From Promethearchaeota archaeon (lineage in GTDB: Archaea; Asgardarchaeota; Lokiarchaeia; Sigyniarchaeales; SOKP01): a stretch of 45,456 nucleotides of DNA. Positions within the stretch are counted from its first letter, which is position 1; each line of letters opens with the position of its first letter. Below, one piece after another: positions 32,237 through 36,982 of this stretch. Location: the NCBI GenBank assembly GCA_011364975.1, contig RDOE01000020.1, positions 1-45,456 of the forward strand, read 5' to 3'. The position numbers and the translations under genes were made by a program. The notes beneath the pieces are model-generated. The model saw nothing but the letters and a program-made list of their open reading frames with translations, was not told the origin of the DNA and searched no databases.

Positions 32237-35098
32237 CTAATTCTTAACATTTATTGACACTTTTACAAGTGCATCGTTGATCTTAAACTCCTTATGATTT
32301 TGTACGCTCCTAGTATTTTCAATTAAAAAATCAGATTGAGTCATATCCATGACTTCATCTTTGTGGTTTCTAACAGAGCTCATTATTTCCTCATCTGTGG
32401 TTTCTAAATGGAGGATTATTCGATCACTTATTGATAAACCCATCTCTTTCCTGTAATTGTTTATATGACGAATTAAATTCCTAGCTATTCCTTCTAATTT
32501 TAAATCAATGGTGATTTCGGTATCTAATTCGATAGAAATATGTTCTTCATCTTGACTTTCGAGTTTTATATTTCTCACGTTAACAGCATCCGCGATTATA
32601 TCTAAGAATCCCTTATCTAAACTCGTACCCTTTATGATAAGGCGTCCTAAAACTTGCCGAACTGGAATTTTAGCATTATCACGCGATTCTAAAGCTTTTT
32701 TGACAATATCTCTTGTTAATTCCATCTTATTTTGTAAATCAACATTTATTAATCCGTCATTACAATTAGGCCATGACTCTAAATGGACTGATTCTAACTT
32801 CACGAGTTTTTTTTCTTTAAGGGTTTGATAAATCATTTCAGAAATAAACGGGGTTAAAGGAGCTAATAATCGTGATGTGATGGTAAGTACATATGATAAT
32901 GTTTTCATTGCTTCTCGTTTTTCAATCTCATTATTACTCTTAAACCTACTTCTGCTATTTCTAAGATACCATGTAGAAAGGTCCTCTACAAAATTAAATA
33001 ATAATCTGCTAACTTCGGCTGTATTATAGTCATCCATCCCTTTAGATACATCGTGAATTAGAAGATTTAACACGCTTATTATCCATTTATCTAAGATGTT
33101 GGTTGATTCGGGATTGTCATTATCAGAATTGTTAATTTCGAAAAGACGATAAAATTTGATCACGTTAACAAGTAATAAATTAAACCTTCGATAGACTTGT
33201 TGTATTATTTCTTCTCTTAAGTTTAAATCTTGAGCTCTCATTAATTGGGATGATAAGAGATACATTCTTAATGCGTCTGCTCCATATTTCTCTATTATTA
33301 AATTTGGATCGGGGTAATTTCTTTTAGACTTAGCCATTTTGGTTCCATCCTCCGCAAGAATATTTCCATTTACAACCACATTTTTAAAGGGGATCTCATT
33401 AAATAGCAATACAGCAATCACATGCATATAATAAAACCATGCTCTAACTTGTCCCACATACTCAGATATGAAATCACTAGGAAAGTAGGAGCAAAACTCT
33501 TCAGCATTCTCGAAAGGATAATGTCTTGAAGCATATGGCATTGATCCCGATTCTAACCAGCAATCAAAAACTTCAGGTATTCGATCCATTTTTTCTCCGC
33601 AGATAAGACACCTTAGATGTATTCTATCAATTATATGCCTATGAAGATCGACATCATCAGGAACTTTTTCTAGTGCAAGTGCCTGTAATTCTCTAATAGA
33701 GCCGATTACTACAATATTAGCACACTGTTTACACTCCCAAACTGGTATTGCTGTAGCCCAAAATCGATTTCGAGAGATACACCAATCAGGAGCTGTTGAT
33801 ATGATATTTTTATACCTTTTAGAGACTTCTTCGGGATACCAATTGATTTTCTCGTTAGTTTCAAGAAGCATCGGTTTAATTTCTTGTATTTTTATGAACC
33901 ATGCATCAATTGCATTGTATATTAGGGGGGTTTCACATCTATAACAAAATGGATAGGAATGTAAATGTTCTTCTGTACTGAATAAAAGGTTTTGCCTTCT
34001 TAAATCATCTGATACCAGTTTATCAAGGTCTTTAAACCATGTTCCGATCCATTCTTTTGGGCCATCAATCAAAACTCCCCTTTCATCAATATGTTGAATG
34101 ATTGGTAATTCGTATTTCTCTATTATTTCATAATCAAATTCGCCATATATCGCTATGTGAATGATTCCAGTCCCTTCGTCCGATAAAACATTTTTACCTC
34201 CATCAATTATGAGATATCCTCTCCTTTCGGTATCCGGATAAATTCGATATAACGGTTTATACTCTTTTAACAACAACCTATTTCCTTCAAATTCTTCTAT
34301 CAATTGAAATTCTTCCTTAATGGTTATTAATCTTGATTTCATCAAAATTAAGAATTCATCAGTACCCGTGATCTGAATTTTTGAGTAAATCTCCTCACCA
34401 TTTACAGCTAAGGCTACATTTCCAATCAAGGTCCATGGGGTGGTAGTCCAAGCAAGGAGATATGTATTCGGTTCTGACATCAGTTTAAACTTTACTGTTA
34501 TTGCATGTTCATATACATCTCTATAACTGTTATCCATAGATATTTCAGAATTTGAAAGGGGTGTTTCGCATCTTGGGCAATAAAGTAAGACTTTTTTGCT
34601 CTTGTAAACATACCCTTCGTTATATATTCTTTTAAATATATACCAAATTGTTTCCATATATGAATTATCCATTGTTTTATATGAATTATCGAATTCTATC
34701 CATTTACCCATTCGCTCAACTGTTGTTTTCCATTCATTAGTATACCATAGAACTTTTGAACGGCAATATTCGTTAAATATATCAATCCCCATCTCATGAA
34801 TTTCACTTTTTTGTCTCAGATTTAATGCATTCTCGCATATAGTTTCTATGGGTAGGCCATGGCAGTCCCAACCCCAACGTCTATCGCAACGGTAACCTTT
34901 CATTGTCCAATATCTTGGGAACACATCCTTTGTAACAATACTTAGAATATGACCATAATGAGGTAATCCCGTGGCAAAAGGAGGGCCATCATAGAAAATA
35001 TATGATTTCTCTTTAGGGCGTTGTTCTACACTCTTTTCAAATATATCATTTTCCTTCCAAAATTTAATAAATTCTTTCTCTTTTTCTATATACGATAA
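32237..35098 (-). CDS. ileS: Isoleucyl-tRNA synthetase; N-terminus extends beyond the track call, start codon non-canonical
   Basis: Upstream in-frame extension SYIEKEKEFIKFWKENDIFEKS...FYDGPPFATGLPHYGH; GWDCHGLPIE, WTTTPWTL, DWCISRNRFW, KMAKS; SD GAGGTG at 35111-35106; in-frame TAA at 35116-35114; exact start uncertain. Confidence 0.93.
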   Translation of the reverse strand, partial: LSYIEKEKEFIKFWKENDIFEKSVEQRPKEKSYIFYDGPPFATGLPHYGHILSIVTKDVFPRYWTMKGYRCDRRWGWDCHGLPIETICENALNLRQKSEIHEMGIDIFNEYCRSKVLWYTNEWKTTVERMGKWIEFDNSYKTMDNSYMETIWYIFKRIYNEGYVYKSKKVLLYCPRCETPLSNSEISMDNSYRDVYEHAITVKFKLMSEPNTYLLAWTTTPWTLIGNVALAVNGEEIYSKIQITGTDEFLILMKSRLITIKEEFQLIEEFEGNRLLLKEYKPLYRIYPDTERRGYLIIDGGKNVLSDEGTGIIHIAIYGEFDYEIIEKYELPIIQHIDERGVLIDGPKEWIGTWFKDLDKLVSDDLRRQNLLFSTEEHLHSYPFCYRCETPLIYNAIDAWFIKIQEIKPMLLETNEKINWYPEEVSKRYKNIISTAPDWCISRNRFWATAIPVWECKQCANIVVIGSIRELQALALEKVPDDVDLHRHIIDRIHLRCLICGEKMDRIPEVFDCWLESGSMPYASRHYPFENAEEFCSYFPSDFISEYVGQVRAWFYYMHVIAVLLFNEIPFKNVVVNGNILAEDGTKMAKSKRNYPDPNLIIEKYGADALRMYLLSSQLMRAQDLNLREEIIQQVYRRFNLLLVNVIKFYRLFEINNSDNDNPESTNILDKWIISVLNLLIHDVSKGMDDYNTAEVSRLLFNFVEDLSTWYLRNSRSRFKSNNEIEKREAMKTLSYVLTITSRLLAPLTPFISEMIYQTLKEKKLVKLESVHLESWPNCNDGLINVDLQNKMELTRDIVKKALESRDNAKIPVRQVLGRLIIKGTSLDKGFLDIIADAVNVRNIKLESQDEEHISIELDTEITIDLKLEGIARNLIRHINNYRKEMGLSISDRIILHLETTDEEIMSSVRNHKDEVMDMTQSDFLIENTRSVQNHKEFKINDALVKVSINVKN

Positions 35099-35186
35099 TA
35101 AAATACACCTCTTTTAGATGATCTTTCTTAGTTTTTTCCTAAATTTAATTAATGCTAAATTAAAAAATTATTTTTGAAACTATGAG

Positions 35187-35207
35187 TTATTTAATCATAA
35201 TAATCAC
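35187..35207 (-). other. Second Ile-rich mini-uORF in the ileS leader (GTG ATT ATT ATG ATT AAA TAA)
   Basis: Repeats the ATTATTATGATTA tract of the main leader ORF. Confidence 0.35.
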
Positions 35208-35263
35208 TATTTGAAGCCAGATGTGGAAACAAAGCTATGAAATGTCGCTTCAAACGATAGCGT

Positions 35264-35338
35264 TTATTCAATAATAATCTTAGATGGGATAATCATAATA
35301 ATAAGTGCTAAAACTTCAAACAATACTTGTTTATTCAT
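35264..35338 (-). CDS. Ile-rich leader peptide upstream of ileS (MNKQVLFEVLALIIMIIPSKIIIE)
   Basis: 24 codons, 7 of the last 12 are Ile; same strand as ileS and about 165 nt upstream of it. Confidence 0.7.
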   Translation of the reverse strand: MNKQVLFEVLALIIMIIPSKIIIE

Positions 35339-35509
35339 AGCATCCACATCTAATGTTATATATTAAAAAAGGATACCCAGTTTTATAAGTTTAACTTAGT
35401 CATTATAACAAGATGATTTGATGATTTTACTCCCTTAGACAATATATTTATTCTAAAAAAGCCATATTATCCATAGAACGTATTATATAACATATCATGC
35501 AAAATTTCT

Positions 35510-36982
35510 ATGGAACCTCGAAACATCCTTAAAACATTAGCTCATTTTGCTGAGCGTGAATACAAAGAAAAGCGTCCAAAATCTGTAAAAATCTATCGAG
35601 TAAAAAGTAAAAGTGTTCTAACAAGAGGAGTTTTACCATCGCTTCAAATCAAACAGGTGGGGCCCATTGCATTTCTCGTTATTGCCGATTATGGAGAACA
35701 CTACAGATGTTACAATTTCTCTCGTCAAGGCATACTTATATCAGGAGACAATGTAGAACCGAGTCCAAAATTTCTCAAAGATTTAGAAAAATCCACAAAA
35801 CTAGAATTCCAGTTACCTAAAAAAGAACCTATCACTCATCCTAAAGACATTTCAGCACAAATTCAGGATATTTTCAAACGCCATATCAATCGTCTTAACT
35901 CATTGATAGGTATAAATATAATTATCCCCCCATTCAGATTGCGAGAAATTTTTATAACCTTAATTACGCAATATACTACGTTAAATCAAGAAGAACTCGA
36001 AATAATAATAGTATCTGAGATCTTCACGCATTATCTTAAAAATGTAATCAATCTTCCTCAGATATTACCAAAAATCGTTTCTCATAATTTAATTTCTATG
36101 ATATTAACACATATTTATTTCAATTTTAAATATAGCCTTCAAATTGGACACCAATTTTCTCTTTCTGAAAAATTATTAAAACAACAAACTGATATACCTT
36201 TTGATAATGCAATTACCTTATACAACCTCTCTAAAGAATTTGTAATAAATCGAATAGCAAGTCTTTCTAAAAATCATCTTACACTTTTGATAAAATCAAT
36301 TCATAATATCTTATCTTTTATCCCCCTCTATCAAATTGAGTTATCATCAAGCGAAATTGTCAATTTGCACAGAGAGTTGTACAAATACCTTAATTGCTTT
36401 CTTGAGAAAAAAGAAGAAAATAAGAAATATCAGATTTCCTTCTCTGAAATCGCGACTCTTTATTATAACATAAGTACAACAGAATTCTCCAAGCAAATCT
36501 TTGGGATAAATGCAATTATTCCAATCAATCAAGATCAACAAATGAGCTTTACTGAGTTACTTTCATTAATCAATTCCTATTTAAATGACCCAAAGATAAA
36601 AAATATTATTGGTAAATTATCAGAATTTATCTCAGACAGCATAAATCAATACATATCGGATAAGATCATTAAAATAGCGTTGGAATCCATGATTCAAGAC
36701 GATATGTACACTCTTATCCTTATTATCACTAACAAGAGTGAATTTATGTTTAAAAATTTTGTTAGTAAAGTAAAGTGGAAACCTAAAAAACGTTTAGAAT
36801 TAGTGGGAGGGAAAAATAATGAGGAACAAGCTGAATTACCTAAAGAATATGAATATAATCTTAAATTTTTAATTAAAAGCAAAGGACCCTGCACAATTTT
36901 CTCTACTTTCTCGTTTCAAAACCCTATCTTTCCATCCCAAGAACTTAAGATAAAAAAGAAACTCGGGAAACTCTCCATTTAA
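35510..36982 (+). CDS. Hypothetical protein
   Basis: 490-aa ORF with no recognisable motif; possibly a beta-rich C-terminal domain. Confidence 0.7.
   Translation: MEPRNILKTLAHFAEREYKEKRPKSVKIYRVKSKSVLTRGVLPSLQIKQVGPIAFLVIADYGEHYRCYNFSRQGILISGDNVEPSPKFLKDLEKSTKLEFQLPKKEPITHPKDISAQIQDIFKRHINRLNSLIGINIIIPPFRLREIFITLITQYTTLNQEELEIIIVSEIFTHYLKNVINLPQILPKIVSHNLISMILTHIYFNFKYSLQIGHQFSLSEKLLKQQTDIPFDNAITLYNLSKEFVINRIASLSKNHLTLLIKSIHNILSFIPLYQIELSSSEIVNLHRELYKYLNCFLEKKEENKKYQISFSEIATLYYNISTTEFSKQIFGINAIIPINQDQQMSFTELLSLINSYLNDPKIKNIIGKLSEFISDSINQYISDKIIKIALESMIQDDMYTLILIITNKSEFMFKNFVSKVKWKPKKRLELVGGKNNEEQAELPKEYEYNLKFLIKSKGPCTIFSTFSFQNPIFPSQELKIKKKLGKLSI

Follow-up and report, generated by a model that had tools for sequence, protein, structure and literature searches.

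Can an archaeal cell read its supply of charged tRNA-Ile through a ribosome that translates a short leader peptide ahead of the isoleucyl-tRNA synthetase gene? The question is raised by a 45,456-nt stretch of DNA from a Promethearchaeota archaeon (contig RDOE01000020.1, positions 1 to 45,456), referred to here as the window, in which ileS, the gene for isoleucyl-tRNA synthetase (IleRS), is preceded on the same strand by a short open reading frame (ORF) that ends in Ile codons and by several segments able to pair with each other in the RNA. In bacteria, attenuation by leader peptides is textbook knowledge and requires that ribosomes read the RNA while it is being made, and a limited full-text literature search found no published example of leader-peptide or ribosome-mediated attenuation in archaea. 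The comparative analysis described here suggests, with moderate confidence, that the 5′ leader of this Asgard ileS mRNA is a cis-acting, ribosome-read isoleucine gauge with the output proposed below. The sensor half of this gauge appears well supported by the comparison of orthologous leaders; the effector half we infer. Positions are those of the window, and all elements of the leader lie on the minus strand.

A conserved leader ORF ending in isoleucine codons

The leader of the window was aligned with those of 29 orthologous Promethearchaeota loci whose IleRS are 64-71% identical to that of the window (30 sequences, alignment A1); orthologous loci in named records come under Promethearchaeota, with three under Hodarchaeota or Hermodarchaeota. 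All 30 loci combine a G-rich segment, denoted A, 4-5 nt 5′ of an ATG, an ORF of the form ATT-ATT-ATT-NNN-stop, and a downstream partner of A, denoted A′ (Table 1). In every leader the start codon, the frame and the stop codon are kept and the ORF ends in AUU-AUU-AUU-X-stop; it has 24 codons in 26 of the 30 loci, and the remaining four depart from this length by -12, -6, +3 and -3 nt, all in frame. The leader peptides vary between loci, with the three ATT codons unchanged at the nucleotide level. On this pattern of sequence conservation, the leader ORF looks translated.

A covariance model built from the 30 leader sequences has one match in the genome of the window and one match each in 25 of the 121 genomes of the class, all of which belong to two genera of one family. 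The matches adjoin an ileS of the window's type in 25 of 25 cases; five further leader sequences obtained in this way added no covariation in A:A′. The leader motifs are absent from the 23 loci outside the Asgard type that were examined, namely 21 archaeal loci, mostly of DPANN, and two bacterial loci of the Candidate Phyla Radiation (CPR). One of these 23, a Nanoarchaeia locus (L063), carries a 10-codon ORF ending in III-A-stop, 131 to 101 nt upstream of ileS, and a long hairpin, identified by eye, that starts just after the stop codon of this ORF, which implies that the idea of an Ile-run leader is not confined to the Asgard clade.

Three covarying helices, two of which share one strand

A sequence-only reading of the window had proposed competing long-range helices in this leader; the segments it named lie on the minus strand where it placed them, and the T6 tract that it listed is present at 35167-35162. 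An inverted-repeat search of 35090-35420 recovered 35343-35351/35219-35227 (9 nt, 100%), 35334-35341/35234-35241 (8 nt, 100%), the two strands of a hairpin denoted B:B′ (13 nt, 85%) and a match between B′ and a segment of the ORF (18 nt, 72%). A scan of column pairs in the alignment, performed without any prior structure, returned as the longest conserved helices exactly A:A′, B:B′ and a third, A:A″, in which the partner of A lies inside the ORF.

The A:A′ helix (35351-43 with 35227-19) is paired in 99.3% of the alignment cells with 2 pairs changed on both sides, B:B′ in 91.1% with 7 such pairs, and A:A″ in 95.6% with 3; the corresponding values for slid controls are 39-51% (A:A′ and B:B′ jointly) and 24-47% (A:A″). 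The core of A, GAUGUGG (alignment columns 7-13), is unchanged in all 30 leaders. The first base of A is an A in the window and a G in the other 29 sequences, and the change is matched by C-to-U changes in both A″ and A′. The compensatory changes in A:A′ are this G-C to A-U replacement in the window and an A-U to U-A replacement in locus L034, and loci L045 and L075 have one G.U pair each. A:A″ contains G.U pairs at one position in 22 of the 30 sequences and at another in 28. The G.U pairs together with the triple covariation speak for A as part of the RNA and not merely a DNA site. Taken on these sequence comparisons, A:A′, A:A″ and B:B′ are real conserved RNA structure.

The covarying helices support the leader independently of its codon content, as had been suggested from the single sequence. 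Of the 17-bp helix that had been drawn over the leader AUG, the A:A′ part is among the best conserved pairings of the leader; its start-codon extension (35341-34 with 35241-34) is partly conserved, being paired in 77% of the cells as against 42-54% in slid controls, with 2 double-changed pairs, including a C-G to U-A change in 5 sequences. The predicted pairing of the 35262-47 region with 35218-05 corresponds to B:B′ and is borne out by its covariation. By contrast, the alternative pairing of B′ with 35325-12 proved specific to the window, with 44.3% of cells paired compared with 34-48% in slid controls, albeit with 5 double-changed pairs. A candidate local hairpin that follows the stop codon (alignment columns 97-105 with 113-121) is 86% paired, compared with 33-67% in slid controls, but includes only one compensatory pair. 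Downstream of B′, a column scan of 16 sequences of one clade (clade A), with helices of at least 6 pairs at a level of at least 85%, yielded no conserved helix between B′ and ileS, and the hairpin that had been proposed at 35200-35180 is among those not recovered.

The folding energies of the single sequence are a weaker guide. The 154-nt core folds at -34.5 kcal/mol (z = -2.29, 2 of 200 shuffled sequences as good), the 306-nt leader has z = -1.33 (15 of 100), the B:B′ hairpin region z = -1.36 (25 of 200), the A:A″ hairpin region z = -2.06, and the 35200-35180 hairpin -2.8 kcal/mol with z = -1.16 (26 of 200), that is, no better than shuffled sequences. The comparison with shuffled controls, which had been named as one check on this leader, shows the single sequence to be only moderately unusual and on its own makes a weak case; conservation across the 30 leaders decided the matter. 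A second strain, represented by one contig of run X2 (depth 3.9), shows six differences and one inserted base in 35214-35351, and its change at 35261 turns a G.U pair of the outer B:B′ stem of the window into A-U.

Table 1. Features of the ileS leader and its surroundings in the window
Feature	Position	Strand	Basis or remark
Distal AT box, candidate TATA box for the leader	35381..35389	-	Lines up with a box conserved in the relatives, ~35 nt 5′ of A
Segment A, G-rich 5′ strand, Shine-Dalgarno-like, common to A:A″ and A:A′	35343..35353	-	4-5 nt before leader AUG; core invariant
5′ strand of start-codon helix, includes leader AUG	35334..35341	-	8/8 perfect pairs in the window
Leader ORF, 24 codons + stop, peptide ending I-I-I-E	35264..35338	-	ORF in 30/30 loci
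Segment A″, ORF-internal partner of A	35280..35289	-	95.6% paired
Sensor codons AUU AUU AUU	35270..35278	-	Nucleotide-invariant in 30/30
Segment B, 5′ strand of B:B′, starts 2 nt after leader stop	35246..35262	-	Top helix of unbiased column scan
3′ strand of start-codon helix	35234..35241	-	Partner of 35341-34
Segment A′, downstream partner of A, in the B:B′ loop, abuts B′	35219..35227	-	99.3% paired
Segment B′, 3′ strand of B:B′	35205..35218	-	91.1% paired with B
Weak AU hairpin, probably no feature	35180..35200	-	-2.8 kcal/mol, z = -1.16
T6 tract, archaeal terminator-type signal between leader and ileS	35162..35167	-	T-run counts in 30 loci
Shine-Dalgarno GAGGUG of ileS	35106..35111	-	Genome GGUG-type motifs peak -12 to -9 from starts; aligned in relatives
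ileS (DPANN-type IleRS, ~954 aa; start codon only predicted)	32237..35104	-	TIGR00392, 820 bits vs cut-off 621

Geometry and predicted folding of the leader

The order of the elements in the RNA is A, AUG, A″, the three AUU codons, X, stop, B, a spacer, A′ and B′, with A′ ~125 nt downstream of A and the A:A′ helix extending over the leader AUG. Given that the four strands interleave (A...B...A′...B′), A:A′ and B:B′ are not simply nested and must either form a pseudoknot or exclude each other. The spacing between A″ and the first Ile codon is fixed at 4 nt in 27 of the 30 loci, as counted from the pairing partner of A's first base; in the window, A″ ends 2 nt before this codon. The ribosome footprint was assumed to span -12 to +15 around the P site. 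With this footprint, a ribosome whose P site holds the first Ile codon would shield 35290-35263 in the window, which includes the whole of A″ but leaves B exposed; one that has reached the stop codon would extend over 35281-35254, so that A″ is freed and the 5′ half of B is covered.

The folding model used here is blind to pseudoknots and kinetics. In transcripts ending just before A′, the predicted probability (P) of A:A″ is at least 0.5 in 27 of 30 loci, with a median of 0.92. The A:A′ duplex, including its extension, is stronger than A:A″ (median -16.5 vs -12.8 kcal/mol), and when a footprint is placed on the Ile codons, the predicted P of A:A′ is at least 0.77 in 27 of the 30 loci. The proposal of a switch in which the position of the ribosome selects the fold was right in kind but named the wrong competitor: it is A″, missed in the sequence-only reading, that shares A with A′.

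The probable leader promoter

Two AT-rich boxes are located upstream of A. A box nearly identical to the distal one precedes the tRNA-Val gene of this genome, at -47 to -32; there, taking the proximal box as the TATA box would place the start of transcription inside the tRNA. Because of the G.U pairs and this one clear analogue, the distal box is probably the leader promoter, with transcription starting ~10 nt before A. A crude survey of the start codons of the genome gave no TATA peak at about -27 that would favor a leaderless reading, and the 10 tRNA upstream regions were too few for a promoter consensus. A search for the 3′ end of 16S rRNA, with a view to an anti-Shine-Dalgarno match with A, came to nothing in the available sequences: the 16S rRNA of the same genome stops at model position 828, and two relatives gave no match. 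On the plus strand, divergently from the leader promoter, lies a 490-aa ORF (35510-36982) without a Pfam match.

A proposed mechanism

Transcription would start ~10 nt upstream of A, and the 24-codon ORF, with AUU-AUU-AUU-X as its last sense codons, would be translated. Segment A, which overlaps the ribosome-binding region of the leader, could then pair either with A″, located before the Ile codons, or with A′. When Ile-tRNA is plentiful, the ribosome would reach the stop codon and leave, A″ would be uncovered, and the local A:A″ hairpin would form first, leaving A′ single-stranded in the B:B′ loop. Under a shortage of Ile-tRNA, the ribosome would stall on the AUU run, covering A″ (35290-35263) but not B, and the free A would pair with A′ once the latter is made, yielding a pseudoknot-like fold of A:A′ and B:B′. 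The two folds would set the expression of ileS, most likely by determining how many of the polymerases continue past the oligo-U tract into the gene, where termination at the tract could be either intrinsic or assisted by FttA/aCPSF1. The complete chain of events, in which stalling on the AUU run switches a three-partner RNA with an interleaved hairpin and so tunes oligo-U/FttA-type read-through into the synthetase gene, is put forward tentatively.

Termination or translation as the output

Whether the output is termination or translation control had been held to be beyond what the sequence alone can fix, and this judgment stands. Between B′ and ileS, a T run of at least 5 is present in 24 of the 30 loci and one of at least 6 in 19 of 30, compared with a background in the upstream regions of the window's own genome of 47-57% and 24-31%, respectively. 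T6 runs in the same genome show an ~4-fold enrichment at 0-40 nt after stop codons but are flat in regions upstream of genes; the enrichment after stops fits the oligo-U terminators that are described for other archaea (PMC8716108, PMC7515710, PMC13681488). A T-rich box before ileS is conserved in the largest clade in its sequence and not just in its T content, and it is similar to the box that precedes the leader; it may serve as a terminator, as a second promoter or as both. No site for a terminator of the bacterial type was found in the leader.

With respect to translation, constrained folds of the 30 loci, which take account of neither pseudoknots nor kinetics, indicate that the accessibility of the ileS Shine-Dalgarno sequence and start is nearly independent of the modelled ribosome position. 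The difference in accessibility between the stalled ribosome and the ribosome at the stop codon exceeds 0.2 in 1 of 30 loci for the Shine-Dalgarno sequence and in 2 of 30 for the start, the start value for the window being taken at the codon after the start. Among the 16 clade-A sequences, the scan for links to the ileS start detected no conserved helix between the leader and this region, the best candidate having 7 pairs of which 3 are G.U. Accordingly, control of read-through at the oligo-U tract is considered the most likely output, and a post-transcriptional output is ranked second.

Several observations weigh against the proposed gauge and its read-through output. The relatives are kin, and independent events in A:A′ are few (two compensatory changes and one G.U); the z-scores of the single sequence are modest. 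None of the sequencing runs listed as containing this stretch is an RNA run. At equilibrium, the free RNA is predicted to favor A:A′ in most loci (median P 0.85), so that the switch would work only kinetically. The second AT-rich box is immediately upstream of A and, if it were the TATA box, A would be untranscribed; this alternative is countered only by the covariation, by the G.U pairs and by the comparison with the tRNA-Val gene. No hairpin abuts the U tract, and the T run of the window starts ~38 nt after B′. A T run of at least 5 is missing in 6 of the 30 loci, five of them in one clade, yet it is present in 47-57% of upstream regions anyway. Finally, ribosome and DNA signals in cells of Loki- and Heimdallarchaeota are reported to be 50-280 nm apart (Avci et al., 2021, PMC8776820); such separation, if general, argues against a co-transcriptional reading.

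Alternative explanations

The sensor could be the same and the output post-transcriptional, such that the two folds alter the translation of ileS or the stability of the mRNA on the finished transcript, for example through an exposed A′ or B that acts on the ileS initiation region, or through a compact pseudoknot that protects the mRNA. This possibility, which we regard as unlikely, would not need coupling of transcription and translation and hence fits the spatial separation reported in PMC8776820, as well as the 6 of 30 loci that lack a T run of at least 5; the start of ileS is often weak or unusual (ATT or ATA in 15 of 29 relatives), and A′, judged by its sequence, resembles an anti-Shine-Dalgarno strand. 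The evidence from the constrained folds runs the other way, with accessibility of the ileS Shine-Dalgarno sequence and start independent of ribosome position apart from the exceptions given above, weak as this evidence is in a model that includes neither pseudoknots nor kinetics, and so does the failure to recover a conserved helix between the leader and the ileS initiation region in the clade-A sequences.

In a second alternative, the helices would only shut the leader's own ribosome-binding site or stabilize the 5′ end, ileS would be expressed mainly from its own promoter in the T-rich box downstream of B′, and the Ile run would be non-regulatory. Both A″ and A′ indeed sequester the same Shine-Dalgarno-like strand, and the T-rich box, as noted, is conserved in the largest clade and similar to the box upstream of the leader. 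Against such a scheme stand the invariance of the three AUU codons, placed 4 nt after A″, and the stop codon one codon after the Ile run in 30 of 30 loci; the match between the codon run and the amino acid of the enzyme is repeated in a Leu leader before leuS (see below), and T6 runs in this genome act as signals of terminators, not promoters. We consider this alternative improbable.

Still less probable, indeed very unlikely, is the interpretation that a transcription factor binds A and A′ in the DNA, as the two half-sites of an operator with inverted repeats ~115 bp apart. Both 8-nt cores are near-invariant, an unusual degree of constraint for a plain helix, and A sits between an AT-rich box and the leader AUG; against this, the frequent G.U pairs of A:A″ would be mismatches on DNA, G.U pairs are also found in A:A′ in two sequences, and B:B′ interleaves with A:A′ and covaries strongly.

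Chance complementarity in AT-rich intergenic DNA, to which single-sequence z-scores of only -1.2 to -2.3 might point, has a negligible probability in view of the compensated conservation in all 30 loci despite the limited identity of the IleRS and of covariance matches found only beside ileS; a chance origin is refuted for A:A′, A:A″ and B:B′ and stands for the B′/ORF match and the hairpin at 35200-35180.

The start region of ileS

The Shine-Dalgarno sequence of ileS was judged from the empirical peaks of GAGG, AGGT and GGTG in the genome. In the window, a plausible ileS start codon is absent (35090-35111, minus strand). In the relatives, GGTG is followed by 6 nt and then by ATG (14), ATT (12) or ATA (3 of 29), after which comes TCN-TAT; by eye, a GTG is present in frame 9 nt upstream in all 15 loci with an ATT or ATA start. 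In the window, an additional base (35096) follows the homologous ATT, which puts both that ATT and the GTG out of frame, and contigs from two other sequencing runs show no indel at this position. The only in-frame start options in the window are ATT at 35104-02, 1 nt after the Shine-Dalgarno sequence, and ATA at 35089-87.

The synthetase and its genomic setting

The window, with a GC content of ~30%, encodes split RNA polymerase subunits A′/A″, eukaryote-type primase subunits, aIF2-alpha, an aEF1A-like GTPase and small GTPases of the Arf/Roc type. The IleRS usual in Asgard archaea has ~1050 aa and is 31-37% identical to the 954-aa type encoded in the window. The latter type was detected in 4 of 41 related genomes, the remainder of which have the usual type, and two relatives (G008 and G024) have both types together. 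When an IleRS of the usual type was used as the query against the window's own genome (99.25% complete), the best match was the ileS product of the window itself, at 32%. Thus, the ileS of the window is the sole IleRS gene found in the assembly, and the DPANN-type enzyme appears to have replaced the usual Asgard enzyme here.

In a FastTree analysis of 77 proteins, a quick method, 28 Asgard proteins of the window's type form one clade (support 100) in which the protein of the window branches first and which is the sister group of 21 DPANN-type sequences; with the tree rooted on the usual Asgard IleRS, the Asgard clade and the DPANN-type sequences are both nested among bacterial sequences of CPR. 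For all 11 DPANN-type loci that were checked, ileS is immediately preceded on its own strand by a tRNA-Ile(UAU) gene (L056, L057, L058, L061, L062, L064, L068, L069, L071, L072 and L077; ~1250-1485 in each), and these 11 loci make up a single clade of the IleRS tree.

Comparison with known leader systems

By analogy, the ileS leader looks like the amino-acid gauges that so far have been described only in bacteria. Leader-peptide attenuators of synthetase genes reportedly include E. coli pheM-pheST and Streptomyces coelicolor trpRS1. The leader shares with the bacterial synthetase attenuators a short ORF with codons for the enzyme's own amino acid, helices that depend on the position of the ribosome, and the logic by which low charging should raise the output of the synthetase. 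It differs from them in its archaeal host and in having no GC-rich hairpin that abuts the U tract; furthermore, the helices that compete in it have the ribosome-binding strand of the leader itself in common (A with A″ or A′), A:A′ and the second hairpin are interleaved as in a pseudoknot, and the sensor run is at the end of the ORF (III-X-stop). Attenuators of leuS and trpS have also been predicted in Actinobacteria (PMC1262725).

Measured against the classical attenuators of the trpL, ilvL and pheM type, the leader has a codon run for the cognate amino acid in what appears from the sequence to be a translated ORF and, as modelled from the shared A, the covariation and the footprint folds, mutually exclusive helices dependent on the ribosome; a hairpin directly followed by a U tract was not found in the leader. 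Bacterial-type hairpin terminators are not expected in archaea and, the host being archaeal, a hairpin-plus-U terminator is not expected here. The leaders ilvL and ivbL of the enterobacterial ilv operons likewise use Ile codons in the leader peptide as the sensor, as the ileS leader would, but they control biosynthetic operons, have mixed Ile/Val/Leu codons and follow the classical 1:2 / 2:3 / 3:4 terminator scheme. The T-box leaders of ileS in Firmicutes and Actinobacteria bind the tRNA directly and have no ORF; they respond to the same signal, the charging of tRNA-Ile, and control the same gene. No T-box match was obtained in a cmscan search of 34900-35600 against Rfam (E ≤ 10), which gave two chance-level matches to unrelated families.

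Mycobacterial short ORFs of poly-Cys type are reported to be cysteine-responsive attenuators (bioRxiv 10.1101/834739). In these, the mRNA begins with a tiny ORF that has a run of one type of codon and adjusts the genes downstream to the supply of the amino acid, as proposed for the ileS leader; they differ in being leaderless and bacterial, and the ileS folds give no sign of masking of the downstream Shine-Dalgarno sequence. Leader control in bacteria can also be factor-dependent, as in tnaC and mgtL with Rho. By analogy with tnaC and mgtL, a leader ORF near U-rich unstructured RNA could gate the access of a termination factor. Purely by analogy, FttA/aCPSF1 (PMC13681488, PMC8716108, PMC7515710) would be a possible archaeal counterpart of such a factor.

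A leucine version and the significance of the leader

A 29-codon ORF that ends in five Leu codons followed by the stop codon is present on the minus strand in the same genome (locus L124, 3030-3119; contig C47, 4296-4385), 137 nt upstream of leuS, the gene for the archaeal leucyl-tRNA synthetase (TIGR00395, 956 bits). As judged by eye, it is followed by a 14-bp hairpin, the loop of which can pair further downstream, and a short ORF with a Leu run occurs in 15 of the 18 orthologous loci of the family. A genome-wide screen for short ORFs that end in a run of one amino acid and precede long ORFs gave 64 candidates; among the 20 examined with Pfam, one, before leuS, precedes a synthetase gene, and the other 19 look like chance. 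The Leu version before leuS points to a family of such gauges and not to a one-off.

The window contributes the earliest-branching member of the clade, a compensatory change across all three partners of the A helices, and a genome in which the only IleRS is of this type; its analysis also contributes a negative result on the masking of the ribosome-binding site and the terminator statistics. If the proposal is true, the ileS leader would be the first leader-peptide attenuator in Archaea and a first example of conditional termination built without a bacterial hairpin terminator. It would further provide functional evidence that translation closely follows transcription here, even though ribosomes and DNA are reported to lie apart, and would offer a direct, mutable test of transcription-translation coupling in Asgard archaea.

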